Positions 1,030 through 17,727 of a stretch of 20,973 bases of DNA are shown one piece after another. The notes under the pieces were generated by a model, which made no database searches, was not told the origin of the DNA, and worked only from the letters and a program-made list of their open reading frames with translations. Position 1 is the first letter of the stretch. Each line of letters begins with the position of its first letter. This stretch comes from a virus (lineage: Duplodnaviria > Heunggongvirae > Uroviricota > Caudoviricetes), in IMG/VR virus record IMGVR_UViG_2778261696_000009, positions 1 through 20,973 of that record; one strand, given 5' to 3'. The translations under genes were made by a program, and so were the position numbers.

Positions 1030-3363
1030 TCAGGTTGTCGCAGGGTCGTCACATTTTGGCAGCCAGTCGCCGTAGCTTTCCTCTTTCAGCGTCAGGTTGG
1101 TCTGTATCCCCTGTTTGGTATGGCGCTTCTCGTAATTCAGTCCGTATTCCTTCAGCATCACCGGCAGCCCCAGCCCGAACATTTTCAGACTGAGTACATT
1201 CCGGTAGCCGTTTGCCTCCATGTAGGCCAGATAGGCGTGATAGAGGTATTTACGGTAATTGCGCGGGATGATACTGGCGTTCCCCATATACATGCCGCTG
1301 GTCTGCGGCAGGGTTTCCAGATAGCCGATAAAATCAAACGTCGGGTCGGCATCCCGTTTGATGTTCAGCGCCTCGTATGAGTTCTGCTGGGACTGAAGCA
1401 GTGACCGGGCGAGCATCGGGTCGCTGAACTTCTGCATCAGGTGACGCACGATGACCGCCAGCTCGCGGGTGATTTTGTCCTTAAGCTGCGGGTCGCGCTC
1501 CTGCGGGGCTATCTGTTCCGGGAAGTGAATAATCACCCGCCGGCGTGACACGCCGCCGCTGCGGTCGGTGAAGCGCATCGGGTTATTGTTCACGGCCAGA
1601 ATTACCGCCGGGATATGCGTGGAGTATGCATCCCGGTATTTCGGGTCAACGGACACCGCATCGCCGCCGGTGATGGCCTTGAGTCCGGCACCGTCGCCGC
1701 TCCATTTTTCCTGGTCCGGCAGGCGTATCAGTGAGAAGCCAGTTAACGCGGCACGTTCACGCGGGGATTCCAGCGTCTCGATGGTGGCCGACGTGGCGTT
1801 ATCCTCCCCGGCCAGCAGGGTGGCTATTTCGGCCATGATACTTTTGCCGCTGCCGCCGGGACCGGTCACCTCCAGAAAGAGCTGCCAGTCGTAGCGGTTT
1901 GCCAGCACCATAAACAGTGCGGCCAGAATCACGTCGCGTTTTTCCGCACGACCACCGGCGGCACGGTCAAGCCAGCGCCAGAACGCGGGGGCGTGGGTTT
2001 CCAGCGTTTCCCCTTCCACCGGCGGGGTGAAATCCACATCGCACAGGGTGCGCATCCAGTGTGACGGACTGTGCGGGTGGAACGTGCCGCTCTGCGTGTC
2101 GAGCACGCCGTTACGAAAGCCAATCAGGCGGCGGGAGGGGGCTTCCTGCTGCGGAATAATCAGCTTCAGGGTGTCCACCACGGAGGCCACCTTCCCGGAG
2201 GAGAACGGCGCGCGCAGACGCTGAAACAGCCCGGCCACATCCCGGGCAAAGTCCTGTGGCGGCAGCACCTTCCAGACACCATTTTCATAGCGGGACAGAA
2301 GCTGGCCGTTGGCATCGACCGCGAGCGCCTCGCCGTAATGCTCATAGATACGCATGGCCTTTTCGCTGGTACTCATGGCGGAAAACTCCGCTTCGCTCAT
2401 GGTGTCGAACGGGCTTTCAGCCGGTGGCCGGATGGCATCATAAATGGCCTTACGGGTGGCTTCCCCGCCGTACTGCGTGAAGGCATCATTCCAGTCACCG
2501 AAGACCGGCGGCAGGGCAACAACACCTTCACACGCATCTGCGGCTGCGGCGGCTTTTGTCTGGCCGTCACCGCTGAGGTCACGGTCAGCAGCAAGGACAA
2601 TCTGACAGGCCGGATGCTTCTGCCGGGCAAGGCTGGCCAGAGAAAGGAGGTTCACGGAAGAAAGCGCCACCATCACCGTTTCACCGGTCAGGTGATGCAC
2701 GGTAAGTGCGGTCGCGTATCCCTCCGCTATCCACAGACGTTTTCCGGCCTGATTCTGTCCTTCAAGGGTGTGACAGGTGCCCCTGACCTGTCCGCCTTTC
2801 AGGGTGCGCTTACGGCCGTCAGCGCTGATTAACTGAAGGTTAACCAGTTCGCCGCTGTCGTCATACAGTGGCACCACAAGGTCACCGGCGCACCAGCTCA
2901 CGCCACCGGCTCTGTGTGTGCCGGTCAGCATCCGGCATTCCCGGCCGGGAAAACCCTTGCGGGTCAGGTAGGCGTTACCGGTTCCGGGACGGGTTTTCGC
3001 CATCAGGGTTTGTGCCAGTGCGGCGGCGTTCTTCCGGGCAGCGTCTGTTTCAGCACCGGCGGCGGCCGTCACTGCCGGGTCAGCCGGGGGCAGACAGCCG
3101 GTCACGGCAGCCACCTTTGCGGCCGCGTCGGACGGGGAAACACCAAACACCTTTTCAACCAGTTTCAGGCCGTCACCGGCACCACACTGATTGCAGTACC
3201 AGGTGCCGCGCCCCTCCCTGTCATCAAAACGGAAGCGGTCACTCCCGCCACAGACCGGACAGGGCTGATGACGGTTTTTCAGCACCTGAATCCCCAGCGC
3301 CGGGAGAATACGCGGCCAGTGGCCGAGCGCATGGCTGACGGTGGCGGTTACGTTCATTTTCAT
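1030..3363 (-). CDS. alpha: P4-type alpha protein: bifunctional DNA primase / helicase / origin-binding replication protein
   Basis: 777-aa ORF, the length recalled for P4 alpha. N-terminal zinc-binding motif (CPVCGG...CNQCG), Walker A P-loop (GPGGSGKS) mid-protein, and a C-terminal domain upstream of the TGTTCACC iterons it would bind. AAGGAG RBS 8 nt upstream of the ATG. GC-rich. Confidence 0.9.
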   Translation of the reverse strand: MKMNVTATVSHALGHWPRILPALGIQVLKNRHQPCPVCGGSDRFRFDDREGRGTWYCNQCGAGDGLKLVEKVFGVSPSDAAAKVAAVTGCLPPADPAVTAAAGAETDAARKNAAALAQTLMAKTRPGTGNAYLTRKGFPGRECRMLTGTHRAGGVSWCAGDLVVPLYDDSGELVNLQLISADGRKRTLKGGQVRGTCHTLEGQNQAGKRLWIAEGYATALTVHHLTGETVMVALSSVNLLSLASLARQKHPACQIVLAADRDLSGDGQTKAAAAADACEGVVALPPVFGDWNDAFTQYGGEATRKAIYDAIRPPAESPFDTMSEAEFSAMSTSEKAMRIYEHYGEALAVDANGQLLSRYENGVWKVLPPQDFARDVAGLFQRLRAPFSSGKVASVVDTLKLIIPQQEAPSRRLIGFRNGVLDTQSGTFHPHSPSHWMRTLCDVDFTPPVEGETLETHAPAFWRWLDRAAGGRAEKRDVILAALFMVLANRYDWQLFLEVTGPGGSGKSIMAEIATLLAGEDNATSATIETLESPRERAALTGFSLIRLPDQEKWSGDGAGLKAITGGDAVSVDPKYRDAYSTHIPAVILAVNNNPMRFTDRSGGVSRRRVIIHFPEQIAPQERDPQLKDKITRELAVIVRHLMQKFSDPMLARSLLQSQQNSYEALNIKRDADPTFDFIGYLETLPQTSGMYMGNASIIPRNYRKYLYHAYLAYMEANGYRNVLSLKMFGLGLPVMLKEYGLNYEKRHTKQGIQTNLTLKEESYGDWLPKCDDPATT

Positions 3364-3377
3364 GGTGTTGTTCTCCT

Positions 3378-3626
3378 TCAGTGCAGTACCGGCGCTTTTA
3401 TGTGACGGGCACAGAGTTCATCCATCACAACCAGCCCGAGAAAGGACAGCGACGGCGCGGCCTTCAGGGGGCCGGATTCCATTAAATCTTCCAGCAGGGC
3501 ACAGGCTATCTGACGCCCTTTTTCCTCACCGTGCTGGCGCAGATAAAAGCCCTCCAGCTCAGCGGCGATGGCCGCCTCCAGTGACTCAAGGGTGAGATGC
3601 GGGTAGCGGTGCTGACGTTCGCACAC
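3378..3626 (-). CDS. Small protein in the epsilon position, directly upstream of and co-oriented with alpha; identity unverified
   Basis: Stop lies 14 nt upstream of the alpha ATG and overlaps the alpha RBS, suggesting co-transcription. The start is uncertain: GTG at 3626 has no obvious RBS and internal ATGs exist. Called by position only. Confidence 0.35.
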
Positions 3627-3716
3627 GGTCAGCCAGGCACAGGCGACAGCGCGACGGTAAAGGGCAGCGCGTAAGACGGGCGGTACCGCGATTCACTGAC
3701 GTCAGCCTCCGGCAGT

Positions 3717-3998
3717 ATGAAACGCCCGAAAAGAATGCTTGTTACCGGATATTGTTGTCGGAGATGTAAAGGCCTTGCACTGTCAAGAACATCGCGGCGT
3801 CTGTCTCAGGAAGTCACCGAGCGTTTTTATGTGTGCACGGATCCGGGCTGTGGTCTGGTGTTTAAAACGCTTCAGACCATCAACCGCTTCATTGTCCGCC
3901 CGGTCACGCCGGACGAACTGGCAGAAAGCCTGCATGAAAAACAGGAACTGCCGCCAGTACGCTTAAAAACACAATCATATTCGCTGCGTCTGGAATGA
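3717..3998 (+). CDS. delta: Ogr/Delta-family zinc-finger late-gene transcriptional activator (single-domain)
   Basis: Cys4 pattern CRRC...(x22)...CTDPGC, with SRTSR and RFIVRP segments that align by eye with phage P2 Ogr (C..C...ARTSR...KERY.QC....C...RYIVKP). 93 aa as called; an alternative start is the ATG at 3735. Confidence 0.8.
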   Translation: MKRPKRMLVTGYCCRRCKGLALSRTSRRLSQEVTERFYVCTDPGCGLVFKTLQTINRFIVRPVTPDELAESLHEKQELPPVRLKTQSYSLRLE

Positions 3999-4071: not shown

Positions 4072-4644
4072 ATGGAAAGCACAGCCTTACAGCAGGCCTT
4101 TGACACCTGTCAGAATAACAAAGCAGCATGGCTGCAACGCAAAAATGAGCTGGCAGCGGCCGAACAGGAATATCTGCGGCTTCTGTCAGGAGAAGGCAGA
4201 AACGTCAGCCGCCTGGACGAATTACGCAATATTATCGAAGTCAGAAAATGGCAGGTGAATCAGGCCGCCGGTCGTTATATTCGTTCGCATGAAGCCGTTC
4301 AGCACATCAGCATCCGCGACCGGCTGAATGATTTTATGCAGCAGCACGGCACAGCACTGGCGGCGGCACTGGCACCGGAGCTGATGGGCTACAGTGAGCT
4401 GACGGCCATTGCCCGAAACTGTGCCATACAGCGTGCCACAGATGCCCTGCGTGAAGCCCTTCTGTCCTGGCTTGCGAAGGGGGAAAAAATTAATTATTCC
4501 GCACAGGATAGCGACATTTTAACGACCATCGGATTCAGGCCTGACGCGGCTTCGGTGGATGACAGCCGTGAAAAATTCACCCCTGCGCAGAACATGATTT
4601 TTTCGCGTAAAAGTGCGCAACTGGCATCACGTCAGTCTGTGTAA
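4072..4644 (+). CDS. psu: Psu (polarity suppression protein; capsid decoration / Rho antagonist) of P4-like satellites
   Basis: 190-aa ORF, the length recalled for P4 Psu. Directly downstream of the delta-like gene as in the P4 sid-delta-psu operon (no sid here). GC-rich, helical-looking sequence. Confidence 0.8.
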   Translation: MESTALQQAFDTCQNNKAAWLQRKNELAAAEQEYLRLLSGEGRNVSRLDELRNIIEVRKWQVNQAAGRYIRSHEAVQHISIRDRLNDFMQQHGTALAAALAPELMGYSELTAIARNCAIQRATDALREALLSWLAKGEKINYSAQDSDILTTIGFRPDAASVDDSREKFTPAQNMIFSRKSAQLASRQSV

Positions 4645-4763: not shown

Positions 4764-4808
4764 AGCGTGTCAGTGCAACTGCATTAAAACCGCCCCGCAA
4801 AGCGGGCG

Positions 4809-4827
4809 GGCGTGGCGGGGGGAGCAT
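4809..4827. other. Degenerate cos-like site (P2/P4 cohesive-end-like)
   Basis: GGCGTGGCGGGGGGAGCAT matches the recalled P2/P4 cohesive end GGCGAGGCGGGGAAAGCAC at most positions. It sits where cos lies in P4 (after psu) and coincides with the sharp GC-rich to AT-rich transition. Confidence 0.4.
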
Positions 4828-4902
4828 TGCGCGCTAAGGCTGATATTATAATTTTCTTTAATTCTATTTGGTATTTTGGCTTTATTCGTCAGAAGGAACG
4901 TT

Positions 4903-4937
4903 TAGAAATAGACCACTACAATGGATTGTAGCGGTCT
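4903..4937 (-). terminator. Terminator-like hairpin downstream of the int-RT-partner gene string
   Basis: 12-bp stem AGACCACTACAA / TTGTAGCGGTCT (one mismatch) with loop TGGA at 4910-4937. On the minus strand it is followed by ATTTCTAAA and begins about 10 nt after the partner-gene stop. Confidence 0.45.
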
Positions 4938-4946
4938 GCATGATAT

Positions 4947-5687
4947 CTAGCGTTGCATTTCAGTTACTATGAAATTTTCTTCTGTAATAGAATTCATTAT
5001 CTCAAAGTACAATTCTTCAGGTTGAATAAACGCCAACTCTTTGCAAAGGTTGACAATGGTATCACTATAAGTGATACCCATCCGAGGATTGAAAAGCTCA
5101 AATCTCTTGATGTTTCTTTTGTTTTTTGAGTAAAAGTTTAAAGTGAAATATATTAGCACCTGTCTAAGATCGTAAACACTAAACTTCCTATCTCCTGATT
5201 TTATTTCCACAAGAACATTTGAATAATAAATATCGCCATATGAATTATTTATTACTCCGCATCCATCGAATTGTGGAGACACTTCAATTTGGTTTTCCAT
5301 TCCATATCGAGACAAAATGTTTCTTGCTATTTCCCTTATGGCATTGTACTCAACCATGCTTAAGGGTAGCTTGAAGTTAGAACCGTAAGCGAACCGCTGT
5401 AGATATTCTTTTGTTTTTTCAAAAACAACCTGAAAATCAGCATTATGGAAGATATCATGTGCTGAAAGAATATTTCTGTCTAACGAATCATTCTGTATTG
5501 CCCTATATAAATTAAATGCGCACTCATTAACAAAGACGTTATTTGACCTATTAGCGCAGTCATCTAGAGGAGGATAAACGTCCTCGATGAGACTGCCGTT
5601 AATGATGCGTATGAAATTATTAGCATTTGGAAGCAATTGATTCCAAAATGAAGTGAATTTTCGAGAAAACGTTAATTCAGATATCAT
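4947..5687 (-). CDS. Partner protein of the reverse transcriptase (246 aa, unknown family; possible nuclease-like effector)
   Basis: AT-rich ORF whose ATG overlaps the RT stop as ATGA (5684-5687). No family recognised by eye. Contains GDIYYSNVLVEIKSG, i.e. D-x9-E-x-K in a hydrophobic beta-like context, weakly reminiscent of a PD-(D/E)xK nuclease core. Confidence 0.7.
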   Translation of the reverse strand: MISELTFSRKFTSFWNQLLPNANNFIRIINGSLIEDVYPPLDDCANRSNNVFVNECAFNLYRAIQNDSLDRNILSAHDIFHNADFQVVFEKTKEYLQRFAYGSNFKLPLSMVEYNAIREIARNILSRYGMENQIEVSPQFDGCGVINNSYGDIYYSNVLVEIKSGDRKFSVYDLRQVLIYFTLNFYSKNKRNIKRFELFNPRMGITYSDTIVNLCKELAFIQPEELYFEIMNSITEENFIVTEMQR

Positions 5688-7312
5688 AGCGCATCCTCAA
5701 GATTTCTTGCGGTATGCCTTTTACTTGCCCAATCCCTGTAAATCACCTCTACAAAGTTGAATGTTTTCTTATTATGCTCTCTCCAGTGCCGTCCTTCATC
5801 ACCTAAGATGTAACTGGAAACGATCAATAGTCTTCTCTGCAACGGATGCATTGCAGAGAAATTTTTTTTGATATCAGAAAGCCATGCGTAAGAATTAATT
5901 TTTGCCATTGACTGTGTAACTATGTTCTTGACTAAGATGCTTTCTGGATTGTTATTGTATATTTCACTAAGGATTAGGGTGGATTTTTCTGAATTTTCTT
6001 TTGAGAGCATTCGGGCTACATAGGCTAAGTTGAGCTCAGTACTCAAAATATATGAATCTTGTTTAATTAGTGCAGTTATTTTATCAAGAATAATATCTTT
6101 GGTTTCTGTGCTTAATTTTTGCCAGTTGGAGTTAGCTACTTGAATTATAGTTGTAAATATTGGATATAACTCATGCAAGTTATTAAACATTACTTTGAAA
6201 GCACTACTTATTATTTCATCTGATGTTGCTGAGAATGCCTTTATCAAATGCTTGCTAAAAGATTGGTTAATTTTTGATTTTTGTAACTCACTACTCAGCA
6301 TAGCTAACAAGTCAAAATCTTTTAAAGATTCCTTTATCTCTTCATATTCCTCTATCGCATTTGCTGAGTAAGGATCGAATCTTATAGGAAGACTCATAAA
6401 TTTAGCCTTCATAGGAGATTCTTCATCTTCATCATTACCATGCAACTTAGCTTTAGTTACTGAAAGGAACTCTTCTTTAGTAACAATATTGGTTTTTTGT
6501 TTCTGTAAAGTTAGCCCTTCATTTTCCATCAGTTTTTTACTAAGCAAAGTTAAAATCTTATGAGCATCCTCTCTAGAGTTACAAAAAATAACAAAGTCGT
6601 CGACATAACGCTTATAGTTGATTCTATTCATAGACAATAATTTATCAATAGAATCTAGAGCTAGTTCTGCTAATATTCTAGAGGCAGGACATCCAACTGG
6701 TACTCCATATGATTTTGTTTCACTAAATGTCTGTAGTAATTTCTTGATTTTCCCAGAGTAATCTTTATTGGGGTCGACTCTATCTAACGCATTTTCTAAA
6801 CGGTGGTGATAAATACGCGGATAGAAATCTGCTATATCGCATGTAAGTACATACTTTATTTCATCGTTAGAACATTCAGAGATACTGTCTTCTTGATATT
6901 TTCTCCAAGAGATCTCTTTATCAAAAAGAGAACCATCAGCAAGGTTTGGTTTAAAGCGATATGAATAAACCTGCGTTTTAGTAGATCTATTCCTTTCAAT
7001 ATCATCAGCGATTTTTAAAACTAACCCAAGAAAAAAAGCATTCCAGAATGGATCAATTTGGGTCGCCCACCTGTAACCATAATAACCAATACTTGAAAAG
7101 CTATTAATTATGTTTGGTGGAATCTCGATCCTTTTATTTTCAAAGTCATTAAATGTTTGCATTAATGCAGTTTTTACTTTCTCCTTATCATCTTCAAATA
7201 ACCGACTTTCAAATGGGTAAGGGAAAATATCTGTATCGCCGTGCTTTATAATATTTTCCAATGCAAGCTCAAAGCAATTTTCTAGTTTACTACTATCAAA
7301 CTCGTTACTCAT
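5684..7312 (-). CDS. Reverse transcriptase (Abi/DRT-like defence-associated RT: N-terminal RT domain plus ~250-aa C-terminal helical domain)
   Basis: RT palm motifs in canonical order: LTCDIADFYPRI (motif A-like), GVPVGCPASRILAELAL (motif B-like), YKRYVDDFVIF (motif C, YxDD box). The C-terminal half has no RT motifs and contains GRHWREH (R-x4-H). The ATG overlaps the integrase stop (AATGAGTAA) with AAGGAG 7 nt upstream. AT-rich. Confidence 0.85.
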   Translation of the reverse strand: MSNEFDSSKLENCFELALENIIKHGDTDIFPYPFESRLFEDDKEKVKTALMQTFNDFENKRIEIPPNIINSFSSIGYYGYRWATQIDPFWNAFFLGLVLKIADDIERNRSTKTQVYSYRFKPNLADGSLFDKEISWRKYQEDSISECSNDEIKYVLTCDIADFYPRIYHHRLENALDRVDPNKDYSGKIKKLLQTFSETKSYGVPVGCPASRILAELALDSIDKLLSMNRINYKRYVDDFVIFCNSREDAHKILTLLSKKLMENEGLTLQKQKTNIVTKEEFLSVTKAKLHGNDEDEESPMKAKFMSLPIRFDPYSANAIEEYEEIKESLKDFDLLAMLSSELQKSKINQSFSKHLIKAFSATSDEIISSAFKVMFNNLHELYPIFTTIIQVANSNWQKLSTETKDIILDKITALIKQDSYILSTELNLAYVARMLSKENSEKSTLILSEIYNNNPESILVKNIVTQSMAKINSYAWLSDIKKNFSAMHPLQRRLLIVSSYILGDEGRHWREHNKKTFNFVEVIYRDWASKRHTARNLEDAL

Positions 7313-8489
7313 TCACATTCTCCTTAATAAAAATATAATCTGAATACCACTGCATCATATCACGGCGTTTATCAATATATTGAGCATGATTATACGTACC
7401 TCTAATATTATTCTTATCTATATGAGCAAGCTGTATTTCTATCCAAGCCGAATCATATCCTTTTTCGTGGAGGATAGTAGATAAGGAATGTCGAAATCCA
7501 TGACCAGTAAGTTTTCCACCATAACCAATACGCTTGATAACTTGGTTAATACTCGCCTCACTCATAGGCTTGTTCGGATCGTTCCGCCCCGGAAAAACAT
7601 AACTATACTTCCCTGTCATCATCTTGAGTTCATTTAGCAAATCTAACGCTTGAGTCGACAAAGGCACAAGGTGTGATCTGCGCATTTTCATCCTTTCAGC
7701 AGGAATTTCCCAAATAGCGTTATCTAAATCAAATTCTGACCATAATGCCGCACGTAATTCGATGGTTCTAACACCTGTAATCATGAGCAATTTCGTGGCA
7801 ATCAGGACAAGCCGACTTCCGGTATATCCGTTTAAGGCGCGAAGAAAATCAGGTATCTCATTAGCCTTTAAGAACGGGAAATGATTTGATTGGTGTACAT
7901 TGAGGGCGCTTGAAAGATCCGCAGCAGGGTTAAACTCAGCCCTTCCAGTAGCAATGGCATAGCGGAAAACTTCTGAGCATCGCTGCCGAACTTTGCGCAT
8001 TTTTTCTAATGCACCGCGCTTTTCGATTTTACGCAGCACATTAAGCAGTTCTAGCGGTTTAATCTCTCCCACTGGCCTTGTTCCCACATAAGGAAAAATG
8101 TCGTTCTTAAACGCTTCCATGATGTCTGATGCATATCCCGCCGACCATTTGGTAGACTTCTGTTGATGCCACTCTCTGGCTATCTTTTCGAAGGCGTTCT
8201 CTGACTCTGTTTGCAGAGCCAGCTTTTGCTCTTTTCGAACCTCACTAGGGTTCTTTCCTTCTGCCACAAGTTTTCGAGCTTCATCACGACGGGAACGAGC
8301 ATCAGCAAGAGTGATCGTTGGGTAAACACCAAGCGAGATCATTTTGGGTTTACCGGCATAGCGATAACGAAATCGCCAGCTTTTACTTCCATTTGGCTCT
8401 ACAAGTAAAGACAACCCTTGCCCATCCCCAAGTGTATAGGCTTTAGCTTCAGGTTTAGCACGGCGAATCTGCATATCATTTAGGGGCAT
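7305..8489 (-). CDS. int: P4-type tyrosine integrase (site-specific recombinase)
   Basis: 394 aa. N-terminal arm-binding-like region, then a tyrosine-recombinase catalytic region with R (LMITGVRTIELRA), HGFRHSLST (H-x-x-R) and a C-terminal RGTYNHAQY tyrosine region. Located at the element edge next to the candidate attR. Confidence 0.9.
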   Translation of the reverse strand: MPLNDMQIRRAKPEAKAYTLGDGQGLSLLVEPNGSKSWRFRYRYAGKPKMISLGVYPTITLADARSRRDEARKLVAEGKNPSEVRKEQKLALQTESENAFEKIAREWHQQKSTKWSAGYASDIMEAFKNDIFPYVGTRPVGEIKPLELLNVLRKIEKRGALEKMRKVRQRCSEVFRYAIATGRAEFNPAADLSSALNVHQSNHFPFLKANEIPDFLRALNGYTGSRLVLIATKLLMITGVRTIELRAALWSEFDLDNAIWEIPAERMKMRRSHLVPLSTQALDLLNELKMMTGKYSYVFPGRNDPNKPMSEASINQVIKRIGYGGKLTGHGFRHSLSTILHEKGYDSAWIEIQLAHIDKNNIRGTYNHAQYIDKRRDMMQWYSDYIFIKENVNE

Positions 8490-8727: not shown

Positions 8728-10092
8728 TTGAATCTTATAGAAAAATCATCATTTTCTATGCGTCACAATCAATTTTCACATTACAAACGCTCCGACACTT
8801 TAGCCGGAGATTTTATGAGATACAAGCCTAACCAATACTTAATCTGTGATTCTTACGGTAACTACTATTTAAGGATCACGCTGCCTGTGTATATGCAGCC
8901 CTTTTTTGAAGGAAAAAGGACGTTTGTCAGAAGTCTACACACAAGTAATCTTCGTGTTGCACGTAGAAAGCGTGATCAGATTGCAGATGAATACCATTGC
9001 TTACGGGAGAGTGTTGCCCCTGTAAACAGCACAATAGAAAACACGCTGGAACTGTTACGCAGTAAGGCTAAATACGCCAAAACAGCTACCAGAGTGCAAG
9101 ATACAGCGTCTTCGTGTCCGTCATTGCTTAAAATTCTTGAAATCTACCTGACAATTAACAGCACGAAGAAGAAGCCAGCCACTTTAGCTAAGGCAAGAAA
9201 AGCGGTAGAGATGTTTCTCTCCTACCGTAAAAAGCCTGATATTGCATTGCAAGATGTAAGCCGCACCACTGTTACAGGCTGGATTGAACACATGCAAAAA
9301 ACTCTTTCACAACAATCAATTGCAAATTATATCAGTCCAATGGCCCAGCTATGGGAATTAGCTTCATCACGTTACCACGATGCGCCAGAAAGGGCGCTCT
9401 CCCCCTGGCGAGGGCATAGGCTTGATGTGGCACAAAGTAGAGAGAGCTACGAGGCATTTTCTAACAAAGAGCTATTGCAGGTGTTGCAAGTATTTTCCGG
9501 TAATTCAGCAGAAAACAAAGAAATGACGGCTTTGTGTCTTATCGGTTTATATACAGGTATGCGGATCAATGAGATAGCAAGTCTCACAATAGACGATGTG
9601 AAAGAGATCGAAGGTGTGCTGTGTTTTGAAATCACACAGGGAAAGACGAAAGCTGCGGCACGTGTTGTGCCTGTGCATAACCTTATCACTCCGTTGGTGT
9701 TGTCGCTGCGTGAAAAGCCTCACAATGGCTTTTTGTTCTATCACGCCAGCATTACAGAACGTGCTGACGGTAAACGCTCTACGTGGCATACACAACGATT
9801 TACAAGAGCTAAACGAAAGGCTTTAGGGGAAAAGGGAACAGAAAGGAAAGTGTTTCATTCTCTGAGACACGGAGTAGCACAGCTTCTTGATCGAAATCAA
9901 ATTCCAGAAGACAGGATCGCCCTTCTCCTGGGCCATACACGCGGCAATACAGAAACATTCCGCACATATAGCAAAAATGCAGCTTCTCCAATAGAGCTTA
10001 AAAAATATATTGAGCTTTTACGCTACCCTGAAATAGAGAAAGGCTTATCAATCAATAAAAAATCAAATTTAAGGCGTAAAACAACGCTATAG
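8728..10092 (+). CDS. Second tyrosine recombinase / phage-type integrase (likely true start at ATG 8815)
   Basis: C-terminal catalytic signatures: YTGMRINEIASL (R), HSLRHGVAQLL (H-x-x-R), LLGHTRG and FRTYSK (Tyr). The in-frame ATG at 8815 has a GGAG RBS 5 nt upstream. Divergent from the P4-type int. Confidence 0.8.
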   Translation: MNLIEKSSFSMRHNQFSHYKRSDTLAGDFMRYKPNQYLICDSYGNYYLRITLPVYMQPFFEGKRTFVRSLHTSNLRVARRKRDQIADEYHCLRESVAPVNSTIENTLELLRSKAKYAKTATRVQDTASSCPSLLKILEIYLTINSTKKKPATLAKARKAVEMFLSYRKKPDIALQDVSRTTVTGWIEHMQKTLSQQSIANYISPMAQLWELASSRYHDAPERALSPWRGHRLDVAQSRESYEAFSNKELLQVLQVFSGNSAENKEMTALCLIGLYTGMRINEIASLTIDDVKEIEGVLCFEITQGKTKAAARVVPVHNLITPLVLSLREKPHNGFLFYHASITERADGKRSTWHTQRFTRAKRKALGEKGTERKVFHSLRHGVAQLLDRNQIPEDRIALLLGHTRGNTETFRTYSKNAASPIELKKYIELLRYPEIEKGLSINKKSNLRRKTTL

Positions 10093-10172
10093 ACGTAATA
10101 AAGAGGCTTCAATATAGACTGATGCCTCTTTTATGATTATCTCGTTACAGAGCGTTTCATAGGCGTTTAAGG

Positions 10173-10850
10173 CTATTGTTTAAATACTGGCGTTACAACG
10201 TCTTGCCCTGGGCTTTTTTGATTTTTCTGTTCTGTTGTATTTACCTGCATTTTAACCTGGCCTCCTACAGATTTATTTGGTGCTGTTTTTACCGCAATTG
10301 CGCTTGTAGTTGCTTTAGAGACAAGACGGATTTGCTCAAAATCAAGAGTAAACAATAGGCTTTCGCTTGCTTCTTCTTCGTAAGACATGCCAACTAACAC
10401 AACGTTGTCATAATTTTTTAACTCAGTGACAAGTAGGAAAGGTTGGCGACTGTCCATCAACTGATTTAGGTATTCAAGCATAAGCATACGTCGATTGCCG
10501 TTAATTCCAGCATTCTTAATCATATCAGGATTGAGCTTCAATACGGTTTCAGAGATACGCCCTTGTAATGTGAACTTGTTATTCCGTATTTGAACATGAT
10601 CACTAACTTCTGATCCTGATTCGACGGCATAGCTTGTAACGTCCGCATTTCTGCTAACTTTCGTCGATTCCACGCTATCAAATGATAATGCCTGGTAGTC
10701 ATTGTAAGCAGCATTTGCACCACTGCCGAGATTAGAGGTAATGATCGCAAAGCCGTTACCCCCTTTGGTTGTTCTACCGTTGCTATCGTTGCTTGTGCTG
10801 TTGATTTTCGCCTCAGTCGGGCGACCAATGGTTAACGGACCCATTGCCAT
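10173..10850 (-). CDS. Hypothetical protein (225 aa), last gene of the structural-looking operon
   Basis: ORF with AAGGA RBS upstream of the ATG at 10850; Ser/Thr/Asn/Gly-rich N-terminus. Follows the 613-aa gene on the same strand. Function not recognisable by eye. Confidence 0.5.
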   Translation of the reverse strand: MAMGPLTIGRPTEAKINSTSNDSNGRTTKGGNGFAIITSNLGSGANAAYNDYQALSFDSVESTKVSRNADVTSYAVESGSEVSDHVQIRNNKFTLQGRISETVLKLNPDMIKNAGINGNRRMLMLEYLNQLMDSRQPFLLVTELKNYDNVVLVGMSYEEEASESLLFTLDFEQIRLVSKATTSAIAVKTAPNKSVGGQVKMQVNTTEQKNQKSPGQDVVTPVFKQ

Positions 10851-10897
10851 AATTTGTAATCCTTATTTAAGGGGGCTAAACAGCCCCACAGTGATGA

Positions 10898-12739
10898 TTA
10901 ATAGGTTGACCCGCCTGACATAACACCCAGCGTTAATAGCTTGCTAAACTCAGCGGAGGATGCCTTTGATTTGAAGTCGATAAATTCGCTCAATCGTCCG
11001 GTGTCTGATTCGATAGTTAGCGGCACTTCTGCATTTACTTGTAATTCTGGATTGAAGTTAATAACAGGTGCAAAGGTGTAAGAAGGAGCCTTGAAAGCTT
11101 GTTGTGCTGCACTCTGTTTCAGATTTGCAATGTTTTGTCCTTCGAGACTGTATTGATTTACAGCCTGCGCCCCACCTACCGTTTCTTCTGGCATAAACCA
11201 GCTTTTAATAGTGTTAACCAGGGAATTGCTGTTATCTGGCTTAGTTGTTCCGGTGCCAGCGCCTTTATATTGATCAGGAGTGAGATTAGAAAGATTCTGC
11301 TTCATTCCTTCGTTAGATAGTGGCGGTGCATCCCCTAAATTCTTCTGAATAGCTTCCGTCTTCTCGTCGTTTTTCATCAGCCAGTTGATTGTTTTCATTA
11401 CGGCGTTAACCAATCCGCCGATAGCCTCGCCTAATTTGGTAAACATTGGCAGCATTGCAACCATGCTCTTTTTAAACTCTTCAATCACTTTCGGATCAAG
11501 AGATTTCATAAAGCCATCAACAAAGGCGATCCCTTGTGAGTCAGAAAGCCCACTAAGTGCATTATTCAGTTCACGGAATTTAATAACGCTTTCCTGTTGT
11601 GCCTGTGTTACCCAGCGCCCTGATTCTCGTTGTTCTCGTGCTGATTGTTCCACTTCTTTAGCGGAGCGTGTCCAGTATTTAGAGGTGAGCATCAAATCAT
11701 CAGCCAGATCTTCCAGACGACTACCGATTTGTGCATCTGAATAGCCTTTCTTCACCATTCCCTGAACTGCTTTACTAACCAGACCAGCCGGATTATCAGC
11801 AAAGTCTTTTAGATCCTTTTTAGTTAAGAATCCTTCATTCATTAAAGTATTGATGCCGCTATCGCCGCCCTTCCATTCACCTTTGCCTGTTTTTTTATCG
11901 ACTACATATTCAGCCTCATCATAGCTTTTGGTTGCACGCTCACGCACATCTTTCATCTGATCGAGATACTTACGTTTACCTTGATCCCCCATCATTGAAT
12001 CAACGCCGTTTTTGTAGGCCCATTGCTCAATATTGTTCATCTGGTTAACGTCTACACCGCCCAGCTTCGCACGGCTATACAATTCACCCAGCGTTTCAGC
12101 ATTCGCAAAGCTGTTAGTAACAAATTCAGAGGCTTTGCTCATAGCCATATACGTAGCGCCAGCGCCTAAGCCACCCAGCATAACAGCCGCAGCACCGCCG
12201 CCAATACTCCCGCTACCCTTAACAGGTGCATAGGCTTTAGCGTGAGCGTTACGATTGCCATTAATCTTACGTTGTTGCTGTTGTAGGCGTTTCATTTGGC
12301 TATTCATACGTGCCAGACTAATAGCTCCTCTTTCATATTGGAGGGCAATTTCTCTAGCCTGTGCAATAGCTTTATATTGTTCCGCTACAGAAAGGCGGTG
12401 CAATGCACTAATGCTTGATCCAACGTCTAACAGTTTTAAGTCTGCCTTCTCTTTGCGTGCTGCCAGGGCTTTTTGTTCTCTTGCAACTACACGTTGAGCG
12501 GCTAATTGTGCTTTAGCATTGGCTTTATCTGCCTGTGCTTGCTTTTTAGCAATATCGTCTACGTCTTTTTTTGCTTTAGAAGTTGATTGTTTATGTGTCT
12601 TAACACGCAATTCTATATCTTTCACCGCCGCCATTTGTTTACGAAGTTTTTCTACTTCTGCTTTTGCTTTCTCTAATGATGGTCGATCAACCTGGAAGGT
12701 GACAACGTTTGATAAGCGGCTGACGTTAAGTTCTAACAT
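10898..12739 (-). CDS. Large coiled-coil / glycine-rich protein (613 aa), tape-measure-like or scaffold-like
   Basis: N-terminal ~150 aa strongly charged Lys/Ala/Gln-rich heptad-like sequence, then a Gly-rich hydrophobic segment (GSGSIGGGAAAVMLGGLGAGATYMAMS). This architecture is typical of phage tape-measure or internal virion proteins; the assignment is tentative. Confidence 0.6.
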   Translation of the reverse strand: MLELNVSRLSNVVTFQVDRPSLEKAKAEVEKLRKQMAAVKDIELRVKTHKQSTSKAKKDVDDIAKKQAQADKANAKAQLAAQRVVAREQKALAARKEKADLKLLDVGSSISALHRLSVAEQYKAIAQAREIALQYERGAISLARMNSQMKRLQQQQRKINGNRNAHAKAYAPVKGSGSIGGGAAAVMLGGLGAGATYMAMSKASEFVTNSFANAETLGELYSRAKLGGVDVNQMNNIEQWAYKNGVDSMMGDQGKRKYLDQMKDVRERATKSYDEAEYVVDKKTGKGEWKGGDSGINTLMNEGFLTKKDLKDFADNPAGLVSKAVQGMVKKGYSDAQIGSRLEDLADDLMLTSKYWTRSAKEVEQSAREQRESGRWVTQAQQESVIKFRELNNALSGLSDSQGIAFVDGFMKSLDPKVIEEFKKSMVAMLPMFTKLGEAIGGLVNAVMKTINWLMKNDEKTEAIQKNLGDAPPLSNEGMKQNLSNLTPDQYKGAGTGTTKPDNSNSLVNTIKSWFMPEETVGGAQAVNQYSLEGQNIANLKQSAAQQAFKAPSYTFAPVINFNPELQVNAEVPLTIESDTGRLSEFIDFKSKASSAEFSKLLTLGVMSGGSTY

Positions 12740-12773
12740 GCTAATTGTTTCCCTGTATTATGATTGTTGTTTA

Positions 12774-12971
12774 TTATTGTTTTTTAGAGCAATAGTATTG
12801 AATTGCTTCGAAAGTGCTGCACCCAGTCTGAAAGACACGCTGGCGCACATTATTTGCATCAATTTCTAAAAGGCGGCAAAGCGCCGATGTGTTTATAACT
12901 GATTCCTCGCTAATAGCTGCCAGTTCTTTTACAGCCTTAAGAATAAAGGATTGTGAGTTTTCTGTATTCAT
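12774..12971 (-). CDS. Small hypothetical protein (65 aa)
   Basis: ORF between the capsid-like and 613-aa genes on the same strand; weak RBS; no recognisable motif. Confidence 0.35.
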   Translation of the reverse strand: MNTENSQSFILKAVKELAAISEESVINTSALCRLLEIDANNVRQRVFQTGCSTFEAIQYYCSKKQ

Positions 12972-13122
12972 TGGTTTTCTCTCACATATATATTTTTATT
13001 TGGGTTTGTAGACAGTAGAAAAACAAAAAGGGCAAAGAGATTCGTTACTGTATTTGCGCCTACAGGTTAGTTAATCCCTTTACCCTTATTGCCCCGATGG
13101 GGAATCGTCTATTAACGCTTTA

Positions 13123-14154
13123 TTACGCAGCAGATCCGAAGATGATAGCTTGCGGAATGTTGTTTACTGGCAGATAAGATGTCTCAGTAACCACAGATGG
13201 GAATTGGAATTCATCCTTGATTAGATATTGGTGATGCAACACGGCATCTTGACCTAACTCAGCATGACGCACACCAACGCCGCTATGAAGCTGGTAACAC
13301 TGTGCCGCTTTATCCATTACCGGAACAATTGCGAAACCGTTCTCTCCGATGTGAGCAACAATCTCAGGAAACATTGACACATCAATAACAGTGATCCCAC
13401 CAATCTGGAAAGAGTCATAGGCTGGGTTAGAATCAACCATACGGGTAAACAGGGCCGTAGCACTCGCATCGCCTGCATATTTCACCATGTCACTGATCAG
13501 CGGGTTAGATGACAAACCATCAGCAGCAGTGCCAGCAGCAAAGATAATTACACCAGTTCGCTTTGCAGCAAGACCAGACCCCAGCTTTTCACTCTGTAAG
13601 CGCACCGCTTTACGAATAGCAAGGAACGGGTTAACAGTAGTCGATGCAAAGTCGATAGCGGGTACCGTGGTTTTAGCCTGACCGTCGAGGAAGTCGAGAT
13701 CACCTTGTCCGGCATATTCAGATTCAACTTTCAGGCCCAGCAGCGCGGTAATCAGATCCACTTCAACACGGTTTGCGTGTGAACGGTAATGAGCCTCAGA
13801 GAAATCATTAACCGCTACCAGCATAGCATCAGAACGGTTTGGATATTGGCGGCTGTATTGTTCCAGGTCACGAGAAGTAACAGCGTTAATACTGCCGACG
13901 TGTTTCATCTGGAAAAGTTTGTTTGACCATTCCTGACGTTTAGAGGCGTTCCAGTCGCTTTGAGCGTAAGGCGAGGTTTCCCCAGCTACCTGCACAAACT
14001 GATCAATCAGGTCGGTAAGAAGAATGCTGTTTTCTGTATGATATTGCACATCGAACAGATCGAGATTAGTAATCAGGGTATTAAGTGCATTCTCATAAGC
14101 AAATGGAGTTACTACCGCAGTATTAACGCCAAAATATGTTGATAAATCATTCAT
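13123..14154 (-). CDS. Putative major capsid-like protein (343 aa); identity tentative
   Basis: Strong RBS (AAGGAAA, 8-nt spacer). Size and position immediately after a ~127-aa decoration-like gene mirror the lambda-type D-E (decoration, major capsid) arrangement. No direct sequence match could be verified by eye. Confidence 0.55.
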   Translation of the reverse strand: MNDLSTYFGVNTAVVTPFAYENALNTLITNLDLFDVQYHTENSILLTDLIDQFVQVAGETSPYAQSDWNASKRQEWSNKLFQMKHVGSINAVTSRDLEQYSRQYPNRSDAMLVAVNDFSEAHYRSHANRVEVDLITALLGLKVESEYAGQGDLDFLDGQAKTTVPAIDFASTTVNPFLAIRKAVRLQSEKLGSGLAAKRTGVIIFAAGTAADGLSSNPLISDMVKYAGDASATALFTRMVDSNPAYDSFQIGGITVIDVSMFPEIVAHIGENGFAIVPVMDKAAQCYQLHSGVGVRHAELGQDAVLHHQYLIKDEFQFPSVVTETSYLPVNNIPQAIIFGSAA

Positions 14155-14168
14155 TATTATTTTCCTTG

Positions 14169-14552
14169 TTAAGTCGTAGGGATCGCAAGTTCTTCATAAC
14201 CAGCAATTACAAAGCCGAGAGATTGCAGTTTTGCAATAACACTTGCCTTTTCCATGCTGTTAAATTCAATCCCATCTTCAGCCAGAATAACGAAAGTAGG
14301 ATGTGCAACCACTACGCTTTCCTGTCCTTCATAAGCCGGTTCAACTACTACGTGAGCAATATCAGATGCGGTTGTTGCTTTGGTGCCATCGGCTTTCAGC
14401 AAAGCCCCGACAATAAGATCGTCAGTGAGAGGTGAAGCCAGTTTGACGAGGCGATCTTGCAGCACTGGATCAGCAGCGTAAGCTACTACCTTACAGCGTG
14501 AACGGGAGTTATCCGCATTCACTGCTTTTAATTTTCCATATGGGTTAGCCAT
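14169..14552 (-). CDS. Putative head-decoration-like / small structural protein (127 aa); identity tentative
   Basis: RBS AAAGGAAAA embedded in the end of the upstream small gene (tight coupling). Ala/Val/Gly-rich beta-looking sequence; size and position are consistent with a capsid decoration protein. Confidence 0.5.
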   Translation of the reverse strand: MANPYGKLKAVNADNSRSRCKVVAYAADPVLQDRLVKLASPLTDDLIVGALLKADGTKATTASDIAHVVVEPAYEGQESVVVAHPTFVILAEDGIEFNSMEKASVIAKLQSLGFVIAGYEELAIPTT

Positions 14553-14556
14553 AAGA

Positions 14557-14754
14557 TTATTTTCCTTTCAGTTGTTTAATTTTAGATTTAAGGGCATCAG
14601 CAAGACTAACCGCATCAGCCGATTTAAATAATTGAGCAGTGGTAGAACGAAGACTTTCGGGAGTAACTCCCAACAGTGCGGCAACCTTAATGAGGTTTTC
14701 ATCACTAACAATCATCGTTTCCCCGTCTTTGCTGATAATCATTTCTTGTTTCAT
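14557..14754 (-). CDS. Small protein (66 aa from ATG 14754; the track calls a TTG start at 14796), first gene of the structural-looking operon
   Basis: ATG at 14754 is preceded by AGGAAC. Its stop overlaps the RBS of the next gene. Confidence 0.45.
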   Translation of the reverse strand: MKQEMIISKDGETMIVSDENLIKVAALLGVTPESLRSTTAQLFKSADAVSLADALKSKIKQLKGK

Positions 14755-15738
14755 AAATAATGTTCCTGTTAGTGCCAGACAAATAAAAAGCCCCAATGCC
14801 GTAAGAGGTTAATTCTGACCAGCAAAGGGGCTTTAACGTGCGGGCAATTACATAATTGATAAGTTAAACTATAAGAGGATTAAACATATCAGCAAATACA
14901 CTTTTTAAATATACTTGATGATATGCTTAAAGGGTGAATAGATACTCCTGAAAACATGCTCTTAGGAAAACATGCGGAATCAATCAGGAATATCTATTCG
15001 GGGCGCGGTGGCCAACCGCTATCTTTCATGGTGTGGATGCACCAGTCAGATTTTAAGGAATCACTATTCCAATCTACTCACAGATTAAATTTTTAATAAT
15101 GATTAACTACACCAACAGTAATCTACCGTTTCAGAAAATCGTTTTTACAACCAAAGCTTATAGATCCGCATTCTATAAAACCCGTTTTGCTATCAATATT
15201 TCCAAAGTTTATTGCACCATTCTTAGCTAAACTCTCTCTGCTTGCGGCTAACGCTATGCAGATGATTGTTTTTGACAACAACTTAATAGATTATTCTGTT
15301 ACTAACTTCTGTCATTAAATAATAGTTTAATGATGTTAGTAAATAGTTATAAAATATAACTATCAGTGTAAGGCTCTTTAATGTTTTCTGACAAAATAAG
15401 GAGCTTTAGGATAAGCATAGATGAAAAATAATAGCGGGAAGGGCAAGGAGATAACACCTACCCGCTTTTATCAAAATTAAGCACAATGCCTAACAACATT
15501 CATCAACACAACGTAGAAACAATCAACAATCAAAGAGGGAGTTATGATTATTCTAAAACTTCTTGAGAGATGGAAGGTAATATTTGTTAGAGGTTAATGC
15601 CACTCAACCTTTGAGGCTATCACCTTCCATATGCAGGGATTTATGACAGTAGAAGGATTAACACCAACTAAAATCTTTTTATCTACCCCTAAAATTATTA
15701 TATAACAAAATCATTATAAATGCAAATAATTTTCATTA

Positions 15739-16038
15739 TCATTTAGAGAAAATAGCACTTTTTGCTAAATCATCTACTAATTGCTGAATCTCTTCACTTG
15801 CAACCTTTAACGTGGTGGCGATGTCTGTGATGATTTGATTACACTGTTTTGCATCGTCCTCTGATACGCTCACCAGAGAGATAAAATCGTCAAGGCTTAC
15901 ATTCACCTTCATTAAGCTAATAACGCATTGAGAGAGCGTGTAATCGCATAAATCTGAATAGGCTTGATTTATTCTTGTTTGTAGTGAGATAGTCAGATCT
16001 AAAAGTTGTTCCATTGCATTGCTAATATCTTCTTCCAT
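15739..16038 (-). CDS. Small hypothetical acidic protein (99 aa)
   Basis: ATG overlaps the stop of the upstream gene (TAATG); AAGGAG RBS 9 nt upstream. Last gene of a minus-strand string of small ORFs. Confidence 0.5.
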   Translation of the reverse strand: MEEDISNAMEQLLDLTISLQTRINQAYSDLCDYTLSQCVISLMKVNVSLDDFISLVSVSEDDAKQCNQIITDIATTLKVASEEIQQLVDDLAKSAIFSK

Positions 16039-16240
16039 TATGCGTATTCTCCTTGTAATGCATCATTAATCATATTCAATACGATGTTAAAAGGTGTCTT
16101 GAGCGTCAGCACTTCATCACGGTAACGCTCTAATGCTTCGTAGTCTTCTGTTTCTTTTGCCAGCCGAATTAACTCTGCATAGTTTTTTGCATCAGACAGG
16201 ATCATCTGAAATAATTGTGTTTCTTGAATATAGCCAATCA
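16038..16240 (-). CDS. Small hypothetical protein (67 aa from ATG 16240; the track extends to 16283)
   Basis: ATG at 16240 has an AGGA-containing RBS (AAAAAAGGAAAAATAATG); the upstream ATG at 16283 has none. Stop overlaps the next start. Confidence 0.5.
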
Positions 16241-16298
16241 TTATTTTTCCTTTTTTGAATATTTTCATTGGGCGCTTATACATACACCCATCATTTTA

Positions 16299-16682
16299 TT
16301 AGTTAGAACGTTTGTTAGAAGCTAATGTATCTTCTAAATGAGCCATCAGATCGACTTCCGATGCACCACCTACACAATTATTGAAAGCGTTAAATCCCAA
16401 AAAATGATGATAGGAGCTAAACCCTAAAAGCTGCCAACGTTTCAGAGTGCCATCAGAAATGATAGTTTGTTTTCTTGTTCTTGGGCGAAAGTAAACGCCT
16501 GGCATTGATTGGATTATTTCTAATTCTTCATCACTTAATTCAGGGGATTCTGTTTCAAGAATAAAGATTATCTCTTCCCCTGGAATTTCGTTATTGGTGT
16601 GTGTCGGTGGACGTTGTCTTTTTGAATTGAAATTACTGTTTTTTTCAATACGTTTTAAGTTGTTCTTTTTCTTTCTTCCCAT
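16299..16682 (-). CDS. Hypothetical protein (127 aa) with a highly basic N-terminus
   Basis: RBS AGAGGGA upstream of the ATG. N-terminus MGRKKKNNLKRIEKNSNFNSKRQRP is Lys/Arg-rich, suggesting a nucleic-acid-binding tail. Confidence 0.5.
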   Translation of the reverse strand: MGRKKKNNLKRIEKNSNFNSKRQRPPTHTNNEIPGEEIIFILETESPELSDEELEIIQSMPGVYFRPRTRKQTIISDGTLKRWQLLGFSSYHHFLGFNAFNNCVGGASEVDLMAHLEDTLASNKRSN

Positions 16683-16779
16683 TTTTCCCTCTTTTTATGT
16701 GGATTATAAAAACTGGACGCCATTGTTACGATGAATATCGCCATAAATGCATTTGCCATATGTATTGCCCGATCTGTTG

Positions 16780-17049
16780 TTATTGATTGTTTGTGAGAAA
16801 CAATTCAAAATCTTTGTTTAATTTCAAAAGACGAAATGTAGTGCTGTTAATCCCTTCATAATCCAGCACACCGAACGATGTAAAATGATTTAACCAATGA
16901 TTTACGTGTTGTGCGCTGTAGCCGCCTAAACTACAAAAGCTAACCACTGTCGGTGGTGAAAACTCTATGTCCAAAATAGCTTTTAAAATGTTGTATCCGC
17001 TTTCAGTTATTTCAATAGTTTTGTTTCCTATAGTGATGTTATAAGTCAT
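16780..17049 (-). CDS. Small hypothetical protein (89 aa)
   Basis: AAGGAG RBS 7 nt upstream of the ATG; immediately downstream of the winged-helix gene. Confidence 0.5.
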   Translation of the reverse strand: MTYNITIGNKTIEITESGYNILKAILDIEFSPPTVVSFCSLGGYSAQHVNHWLNHFTSFGVLDYEGINSTTFRLLKLNKDFELFLTNNQ

Positions 17050-17058
17050 TTATTCTCC

Positions 17059-17727
17059 TTAGAAGGGTAGTGAATCATATATTGTGCTCTCACTTTTGAG
17101 ATCAATTATCAAAGAGTCAAAATCATTTTCACAAAGATAGATATTCTTTGAATCTAATGCTCGTTTTACAAAATCTTCTGTTTCTTCGTGCGGTGGTTTC
17201 TTCTTATCAAGGGAAAGAAGCCAAGTAAAAATTTCGGGCCGCTCAGGGAACTCTGGCTCTTGTGTTTCTTCTTCAACGATGATTTCGGAAACATTCAATA
17301 TTTCATTAGATTCGTCTTCTTTCTCAGAAGGATCAGGTAGTGATGACTCTCCAGGGGGAGTAATATGTGCATCTGTGAATGGTAATGCTTTATAGAGTGA
17401 TGTTTGCCCGTCCCGAGCCTCTACAGAAAGAACTCCCATATCAACAAACATATTTATAATATTGCGAACCTGGCGATCACTAACCATTCCAATATTAGAT
17501 AATGTTTTTTGAGTGGCGTAACATTCTTGCCCTTGTTCATTGAATCCAGCTATATAGCTATAGATTTCAACGGCTGGCAGTGTAGCGGTGTATTCATTAC
17601 CTGACGGTGAGAACCACTTTTTAAACATCTTCAACCACTGCTCAACGACTACATATTTTTGTTTACCATCTTTCTGATTTAGACATTTGGCTTTCGCTTC
17701 GGCAATTGTTTTGATATTTTTGATCAT
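17059..17727 (-). CDS. Winged-helix DNA-binding protein, replication-initiator / replisome-organiser-like (222 aa)
   Basis: AAGGAGG RBS 6 nt upstream of the ATG. Central segment QKTLSNIGMVSDRQVRNIINMFVDMGVLSVEARDG looks like a winged HTH of Rep/DnaD-type initiators, followed by an acidic C-terminal tail. Confidence 0.6.
   Translation of the reverse strand: MIKNIKTIAEAKAKCLNQKDGKQKYVVVEQWLKMFKKWFSPSGNEYTATLPAVEIYSYIAGFNEQGQECYATQKTLSNIGMVSDRQVRNIINMFVDMGVLSVEARDGQTSLYKALPFTDAHITPPGESSLPDPSEKEDESNEILNVSEIIVEEETQEPEFPERPEIFTWLLSLDKKKPPHEETEDFVKRALDSKNIYLCENDFDSLIIDLKSESTIYDSLPF

Follow-up and report, generated by a model that had tools for sequence, protein, structure and literature searches.

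What is the function of the 246-residue protein that is encoded directly behind a reverse transcriptase (RT) in the window, as we call the whole stretch of 20,973 nucleotides that was analysed? The original prediction described this protein as unassignable, noticed in it a weak PD-(D/E)xK-like signature and proposed a restriction-endonuclease-like nuclease core. We argue here that the open reading frame very probably encodes the nuclease, of the PD-(D/E)XK type, in an anti-phage system with a type 8 defence-associated reverse transcriptase (DRT8; the nuclease is 'RTasPDDEXK' in PADLOC and cluster 17 in Mestre et al., 2022), and that a P4-like satellite prophage of an E. coli-like host has this system as cargo in its psu-int hotspot. 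About the identity of the system as DRT8 and the requirement for both of its proteins we have little doubt.

Identity of the RT partner protein

The open reading frame is present as predicted on the minus strand at 4947..5687, in the list of open reading frames as well as in the sequence, and direct sequence reading places its start codon ATG at 5687..5685 and its stop codon TAG at 4949..4947. A chance open reading frame was ruled out by the number of homologues, a near-invariant motif and low GC content; the region has 31–36% GC and long open reading frames are rare there. The protein can be assigned after all, as the dedicated PADLOC model PDLC03797 'RTasPDDEXK' (DRT) matches it with an E-value of 5.5e-69, residues 1–239 aligning with positions 1–224 of the 226 positions of the profile. 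The RT (542 residues, 5684..7312, minus strand) is matched by PADLOC PDLC03783 'Drt8' at an E-value of 4.9e-166 and 552 bits (residues 11–532 on profile positions 4–492 of 493), the next best PADLOC model being RT_UG21 at 128 bits.

DRT type 8 was defined as an RT of the UG7 group with a co-located 'cluster 17' protein that has remote similarity to PD-(D/E)XK nucleases (Mestre et al., 2022, NAR; PMC9226505). One such system, consisting of a UG7 RT and its nuclease, conferred robust protection against T5 in E. coli, and this immunity was abolished by mutation of the active site of either the RT or the PD-(D/E)XK protein (PMC9226505).

More general libraries do not reveal this identity. The sole line that Pfam returned for the 246-residue protein is CPDase at an E-value of 0.18, which is noise, with no match to any PD-(D/E)XK family; NCBIfam and PHROGs gave nothing meaningful, and a sequence search of the PDB with two profiles of the nuclease family yielded chance matches only (interferon gamma, obelin). 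Scanning 60 diverse members of the family against Pfam did not bring up a consistent family either, a single protein out of the 60 matching PDDEXK_3 at an E-value of 0.099. In PADLOC, RTasPDDEXK matched all of 60 diverse members, and Cas4a2 weakly matched 15 of the 60 (best E-value 0.002). In practice, then, such an open reading frame is resolved immediately by HMMs made for defence systems, while sequence searches of Pfam, NCBIfam, PHROGs and the PDB return nothing.

A predicted RecB/Cas4-type nuclease core

Is the partner protein equipped to cleave DNA? Homologues are numerous, with 96 found in one search and 1022 cluster representatives in a library-wide profile search, nearly all of them 225–260 residues long. 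The motif that had been pointed out, an Asp followed nine residues later by Glu-x-Lys, is found in the peptide GDIYYSNVLVEIKSG (residues 151–165, codons read from the sequence), which contains D152 (5234..5232), E161 (5207..5205) and K163 (5201..5199), all on the minus strand. Far from being a weak signature, this motif surpasses all other features of the family in conservation, and a QxxxY motif comes after it. D152, E161, K163, Q176 and Y180 are invariant among 35 homologues at 33–89% identity, and in 143 distant representatives with a median identity to the query of 29% D152, K163, Q176, Y180, G142 and N200 are conserved to 100% and E161, W15, P138 and P201 to 99%. The order GD...ExK and then QxxxY is the arrangement of the RecB/Cas4 family, and based on conservation and the structural model the catalytic core would comprise the codons for G151-D152...E161-x-K163...Q176-x-x-x-Y180 (5148..5237, minus strand).

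The AlphaFold2 model of the protein (pLDDT 91, pTM 0.88) has the alpha-beta-beta-beta-alpha-beta core of restriction-endonuclease-like enzymes, in which D152 lies just before strand 153–155, E161 and K163 go with strand 158–162, and Q176 and Y180 are located inside helix 171–185. A fold search with the predicted structure, which had been suggested as a check, was run and gave a nuclease-like fold with RecB/Cas4-type neighbours: the top structural matches are MGME1, Dna2, Cas4/ACE1 and the nuclease domains of AdnAB, RecB and AddA, and Foldseek on the same model found the same families with weaker scores. The proposal of a restriction-endonuclease-like core thus agrees with the modelled fold, the invariant motif and the PADLOC family. 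Taken together, the protein is predicted from its residues and its model to have an intact, invariant active site of the RecB/Cas4 type (GD, ExK, QxxxY), and its assignment to the superfamily draws on fold, motifs and the weak Cas4 HMM signal, that is on sequence and modelling.

Two other readings were rejected. The protein is not Cas4 proper, as it does not have the four conserved cysteines of the Fe-S cluster; the only conserved cysteine is C143 (93%), and the next column, with 69% Cys, is occupied by Ser149 in the window protein. A reading as a Holliday-junction-resolvase-like enzyme was discarded since the top structural matches belong to the RecB/Cas4 exonuclease clade and not to resolvases.

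The N-terminal half, in which the original prediction recognized no motif, is helical in the model and does carry invariant residues, which are specific to this family and include its first four. The invariant motifs of the family's own are the N-terminal M-I-S-E, W15, PxFxGCG (138–144) and NPR (200–202). The M-I-S-E element (residues 1–4, 5676–5687) is invariant in close homologues and conserved to 81–93% in distant ones, and the synonymous codon variation at these positions indicates that selection acts on the protein and not on the DNA. Such conservation is unusual for an N-terminus, and the element could be part of the active site or a contact to the RT. One family member of 328 residues (P0205, locus L028:2770-3756) has an acidic insertion of about 85 residues in the N-terminal helical half and retains the N-terminus and the catalytic core despite this insertion.

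RT and nuclease form one unit

The original prediction took the translational coupling of the two genes as a sign that the proteins act together. The coupling is confirmed, as the stop codon TGA of the RT overlaps with the ATG of the partner in an ATGA at 5684..5687 on the minus strand (plus-strand bases 'tcat'). Behind the nuclease gene, 10 nucleotides past its stop codon, an inverted repeat (I1, 92% complementary) could form a hairpin with arms of 13 nucleotides (4910..4937), possibly a weak terminator of the cassette; this hairpin is absent from the calls of a consensus terminator scan.

How general is this arrangement? Co-occurrence of homologues with RT genes had been proposed as a further check, and in every related locus that was recovered an RVT_1 gene encoding 534–550 residues lies upstream and ends exactly at the nuclease start. 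Genome contigs were scanned with a profile from a narrower nuclease alignment, the broad alignment being too divergent. The loci were found in Citrobacter, Brenneria, Oceanimonas, Aeromonas, Pseudoalteromonas, Marinobacter, Vreelandella, Thalassospira, Leptothrix and Snodgrassella, in Lysobacteraceae, Moraxellaceae, Planctomycetales and Alphaproteobacteria MAGs, in a contig labelled Oscillospiraceae and in several metagenomes, and the pairing with the RT holds down to 27% nuclease identity across Alpha-, Beta- and Gammaproteobacteria, Planctomycetales and other MAGs. All 20 junctions that were inspected besides that of the window have a 4-nucleotide overlap, ATGA or GTGA, and in most of these 20 loci a GAGGA-like Shine-Dalgarno sequence lies within the codons for the conserved RT C-terminus LE(D/E)AL. 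In addition, the identities of RT and nuclease to the respective window proteins co-vary (Spearman 0.86, n = 20). RT and nuclease are one translationally coupled, co-inherited unit. Neither of the two observations that had been named as grounds to abandon a nuclease partner of the RT, namely a predicted structure devoid of a nuclease-like fold and homologues occurring widely away from an RT, was made.

A variation on this unit is seen in two loci (L029:967-4397 and L030:903-4333), where a Ser/Thr protein kinase domain is fused N-terminally to a Drt8-type RT, giving a protein of 896 residues that is 56% identical to the window RT. The fusion is followed, with the same 4-nucleotide overlap, by a nuclease homologue of 247 residues (43% identity), and an integrase adjoins.

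The core of the PADLOC candidate PDC-S61, which going by its PDC-S naming we take to be a model of the single-gene candidate series of PADLOC, is matched by 58 of the 60 diverse family members (best E-value 1e-10) over about residues 145–217 in the C-terminal part of the nuclease. It may be, then, that another candidate defence system uses a related nuclease core, possibly one that operates without an RT. Could the window protein itself be a restriction-like or recombination nuclease that serves the satellite on its own and only happens to adjoin the RT? Mobile elements often encode PD-(D/E)XK proteins, and the PDC-S61 match would suit such a nuclease; yet all homologues examined, down to 27% identity, have the RT upstream with the 4-nucleotide overlap, and the published RT mutants lose defence (PMC9226505). 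We see next to no likelihood for an RT-independent nuclease, which the neighbourhood data effectively refute.

The reverse transcriptase

The Drt8 RT belongs to UG7 within Class 1 of the UG/Abi RTs and is also recognized by Pfam RVT_1 (E-value 1.2e-18). Its active-site motif Y236-V-D238-D239 is encoded at 6596..6607 on the minus strand, and R235, V237, D238 and D239 are, like other residues of the palm, invariant in both RT alignments, so that the enzyme appears catalytically intact as judged by its residues. The closest solved sequences are UG15/DRT4, followed by group II intron RTs and AbiK. In the AlphaFold2 model (pLDDT 89) an RT domain extending to about residue 290 is connected by a linker of low confidence (293–317) to an all-helical domain (319–542), and Foldseek with the full-length model returned UG15/DRT4, DRT6, Abi-P2, AbiA and AbiK with E-values of 2e-11 to 2e-8. 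As modelled, the partner RT is of the Class 1 UG/Abi architecture, consisting of a thumb-less RT and a helical-repeat domain.

All Class 1 UG/Abi RTs studied so far synthesize single-stranded DNA in a protein-primed, template-independent manner, and the priming tyrosines are situated in flexible loops. AbiA, for example, primes from Tyr298 or Tyr303 in the linker between RT and helical repeats (PMC12783706). The corresponding disordered linker of the window RT contains the sequence D313-P-Y315-S316 (6365..6376, minus strand), which is kept in both RT alignments including sequences of only 35% identity and for which the model has a pLDDT below 50 at residues 314–317. Because of this invariant DPYS in the linker and by analogy with AbiA, Y315 might be proposed as a candidate for the protein-priming tyrosine.

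A mechanism templated by a non-coding RNA, as in Class 2, was considered and rejected. In the entire window no match attains the gathering score of an Rfam family, the non-coding sequence before the RT and after the nuclease is conserved only between near-identical elements, and there is no upstream spacer: the start of the RT gene abuts the stop of the integrase gene in the window, leaving no room for an upstream non-coding RNA.

The satellite and its surroundings

What kind of element carries the cassette? In P4-like satellites the interval between psu and int constitutes a defence hotspot (Rousset et al., 2022; PMC9122126), and UG7 systems were found in variable regions of P2 phages and P4 satellites (PMC9226505). 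In the window one border of this hotspot is formed by psu, encoding the polarity suppression protein (4072..4644, plus strand; annotated in identical E. coli loci), and the other by a P4-type tyrosine integrase (7305..8489, minus strand; identified from its open reading frame, PHROG integrase matches and RefSeq annotation); a P4 alpha primase is encoded at 1030..3363. The cassette has a GC content of 31–36% as compared to 54–63% in the neighbouring satellite backbone. Of 5426 complete E. coli genomes, 105 contain at least 80% of the 2.8-kb stretch, with the partner annotated there as 'hypothetical protein'.

The stop of int overlaps the start codon of the RT (7305–7312), and since the cassette is not separated from int by an intergenic spacer it may be co-transcribed with int. 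The GC content falls from about 0.45 to 0.33 over the last roughly 300 bp of int, suggesting that the cargo was joined by recombination within this gene or right at its end. On the other side, between psu and the cassette, there is a GC-rich segment, GGGCGGGCGTGGCGGGGGGAGCAT, at 4790–4830. Rousset et al. placed the cos site between psu and the cargo (PMC9122126); a search with an approximate P2/P4 cos sequence gave no match within 3 mismatches.

Further to the left two genes are incomplete. An open reading frame for 82 residues (3378..3626, minus strand) covers only positions 25–106 of its PHROG, and a delta-like one for 93 residues (3717..3998, plus strand) covers only the C-terminal positions 141–227 out of 227. 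The counterparts of these two genes in E. coli ECCRA-119 are about 3.3 kb apart, and this interval holds an icd-like gene, an HTH regulator, a hypothetical open reading frame for 244 residues, which is probably sid, and the 5' part of an ogr/Delta-like gene. The P4-like satellite in the window seems to carry an internal deletion at 3378–3998, and it is probably defective. The open reading frame at the left edge (1–411) corresponds to a truncated pseudogene of a LysR substrate-binding domain that lies beside paoD in a reference genome; here the satellite meets the chromosome.

Past the P4 integrase a second, divergent tyrosine integrase is encoded (8728..10092, plus strand), after which phage-like genes of low GC content, located on the minus strand, encode tail-fibre-like, tape-measure-like, major-head-like and replication-initiator-like proteins. 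This neighbour differs from the one found beyond the P4 integrase in E. coli ECCRA-119. The region 8728–17727 may represent another mobile element inserted in tandem at this attachment site; a search of the window for tRNA genes found none.

How could the nuclease act?

For DRT8 a 2026 review calls the dedicated mechanism 'not yet established', placing it among the DRT types for which none has been published, and our literature search on DRT8 and UG7 did not find a biochemical mechanism study. The residual interest of the locus lies solely in this biochemistry, and experiments on it are sharpened by the placement of the putative effector in the ssDNA-handling RecB/Cas4 clade without an Fe-S cluster, by the Class 1 architecture of the RT with its invariant DPYS loop, and by the strict 1:1 coupling. 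Like all Class 1 UG/Abi RTs studied so far, the RT probably synthesizes protein-primed, template-independent ssDNA, possibly primed from Y315, and the nuclease, coming from a clade of enzymes that thread or trim ssDNA, would act as the downstream catalytic effector. Its cleavage of DNA during infection would depend on the RT or on its ssDNA product and would stop replication of the phage, probably by abortive infection; substrate, trigger and abortive outcome of DRT8 are what we infer here. Some DRT8 systems have a PNP ATP-nucleosidase that 'replaces the usual nuclease effector', as expected for a swappable downstream toxic module, and mainly for this reason we favour the effector reading. A point against our explanation is that about half of the UG7 RTs have no associated nuclease (PMC9226505), so the RT lineage apparently can work without one. 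That the nuclease is an RT-dependent toxic or antiviral effector, as opposed to an enzyme processing the product of the RT, is a view that we hold with about even confidence.

Alternatively, the nuclease may trim or size the protein-linked ssDNA made by its own RT or free it from the priming tyrosine, for which Y315 would be the candidate. Phage and host DNA would then not be attacked, and the processed ssDNA would itself be antiviral, for instance by tying up phage SSB or annealing proteins. The best structural neighbours of the nuclease are indeed enzymes that process ssDNA ends, the fate of the ssDNA made by related Class 1 RTs is set by exonucleases (DRT4, host ExoI), and a physical complex would fit the strict 1:1 coupling and the way in which the nuclease diverges together with the RT. 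However, the PNP substitute degrades ATP and cannot process DNA, which speaks for a generic toxic effector, and UG7 variants without a partner exist. We regard product processing as rather unlikely. If it were true, immunity would be conferred by processed RT-made ssDNA, a mode that has not been described for any DRT, and the M-I-S-E of the nuclease would be an element of the active site or for docking to the RT.

A role in self-protection, comparable to that of an antitoxin, has also to be weighed. The partner would degrade toxic ssDNA that the RT produces constitutively, and inhibition or saturation of the nuclease by a phage would let the ssDNA accumulate. This would resemble the model for DRT4, in which a host 3'-5' exonuclease keeps the RT-made ssDNA harmless until a T5 protein blocks the exonuclease; DRT8 likewise protects against T5, and the fold of the nuclease is that of an ssDNA exonuclease. 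On the other hand, active-site mutants were reported to lose immunity and not to turn toxic (toxicity was described neither way), and replacement by PNP does not suit an antitoxin, which makes self-protection a very unlikely function.

Comparison with known systems

RecB/Cas4-type nucleases include MGME1, Dna2, the nuclease domains of AdnAB, AddAB and RecB, Cas4, the Argonaute-associated ACE1, RecE and lambda exonuclease, to which the window nuclease has 7–13% identity. The window family differs from them in that it has no match to Pfam or PDB at the level of sequence and no conserved histidine, and in that its partner gene invariably encodes an RT, in place of a helicase, Cas1 or Argonaute. 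The RT shares its full-length architecture with DRT4 (UG15), DRT6 (UG12), AbiK, Abi-P2 and AbiA. These Class 1 systems consist of a single gene, in the case of AbiA with a fused HEPN domain, whereas this variant of DRT8 needs a separate nuclease. DRT4 and DRT6 are, like DRT9, triggered by ORF55 of T5.

With respect to its location the cassette resembles other cargo of the psu-int hotspot, as it is flanked by psu and int and is much poorer in GC than the satellite backbone. In contrast to such cargo it is fused to int without a promoter-bearing spacer upstream, and the satellite in the window itself seems to carry an internal deletion. As to DRT8, each of the two window proteins is matched along its full length by a dedicated HMM, the genes agree in order, strand and coupling, the residues of the RT (YVDD) and the catalytic residues of the nuclease are intact, and the P4-like hotspot is a setting already reported for UG7 systems. 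A difference to DRT8 is not detectable at the window locus, in a comparison that excludes the exact allele used in the T5 test. Since 2022 DRT8 has had a name, a PADLOC model and genetic validation, and UG7 systems had already been noted in P4 hotspots; the locus is an ordinary member of this named and genetically validated system and not new in kind.
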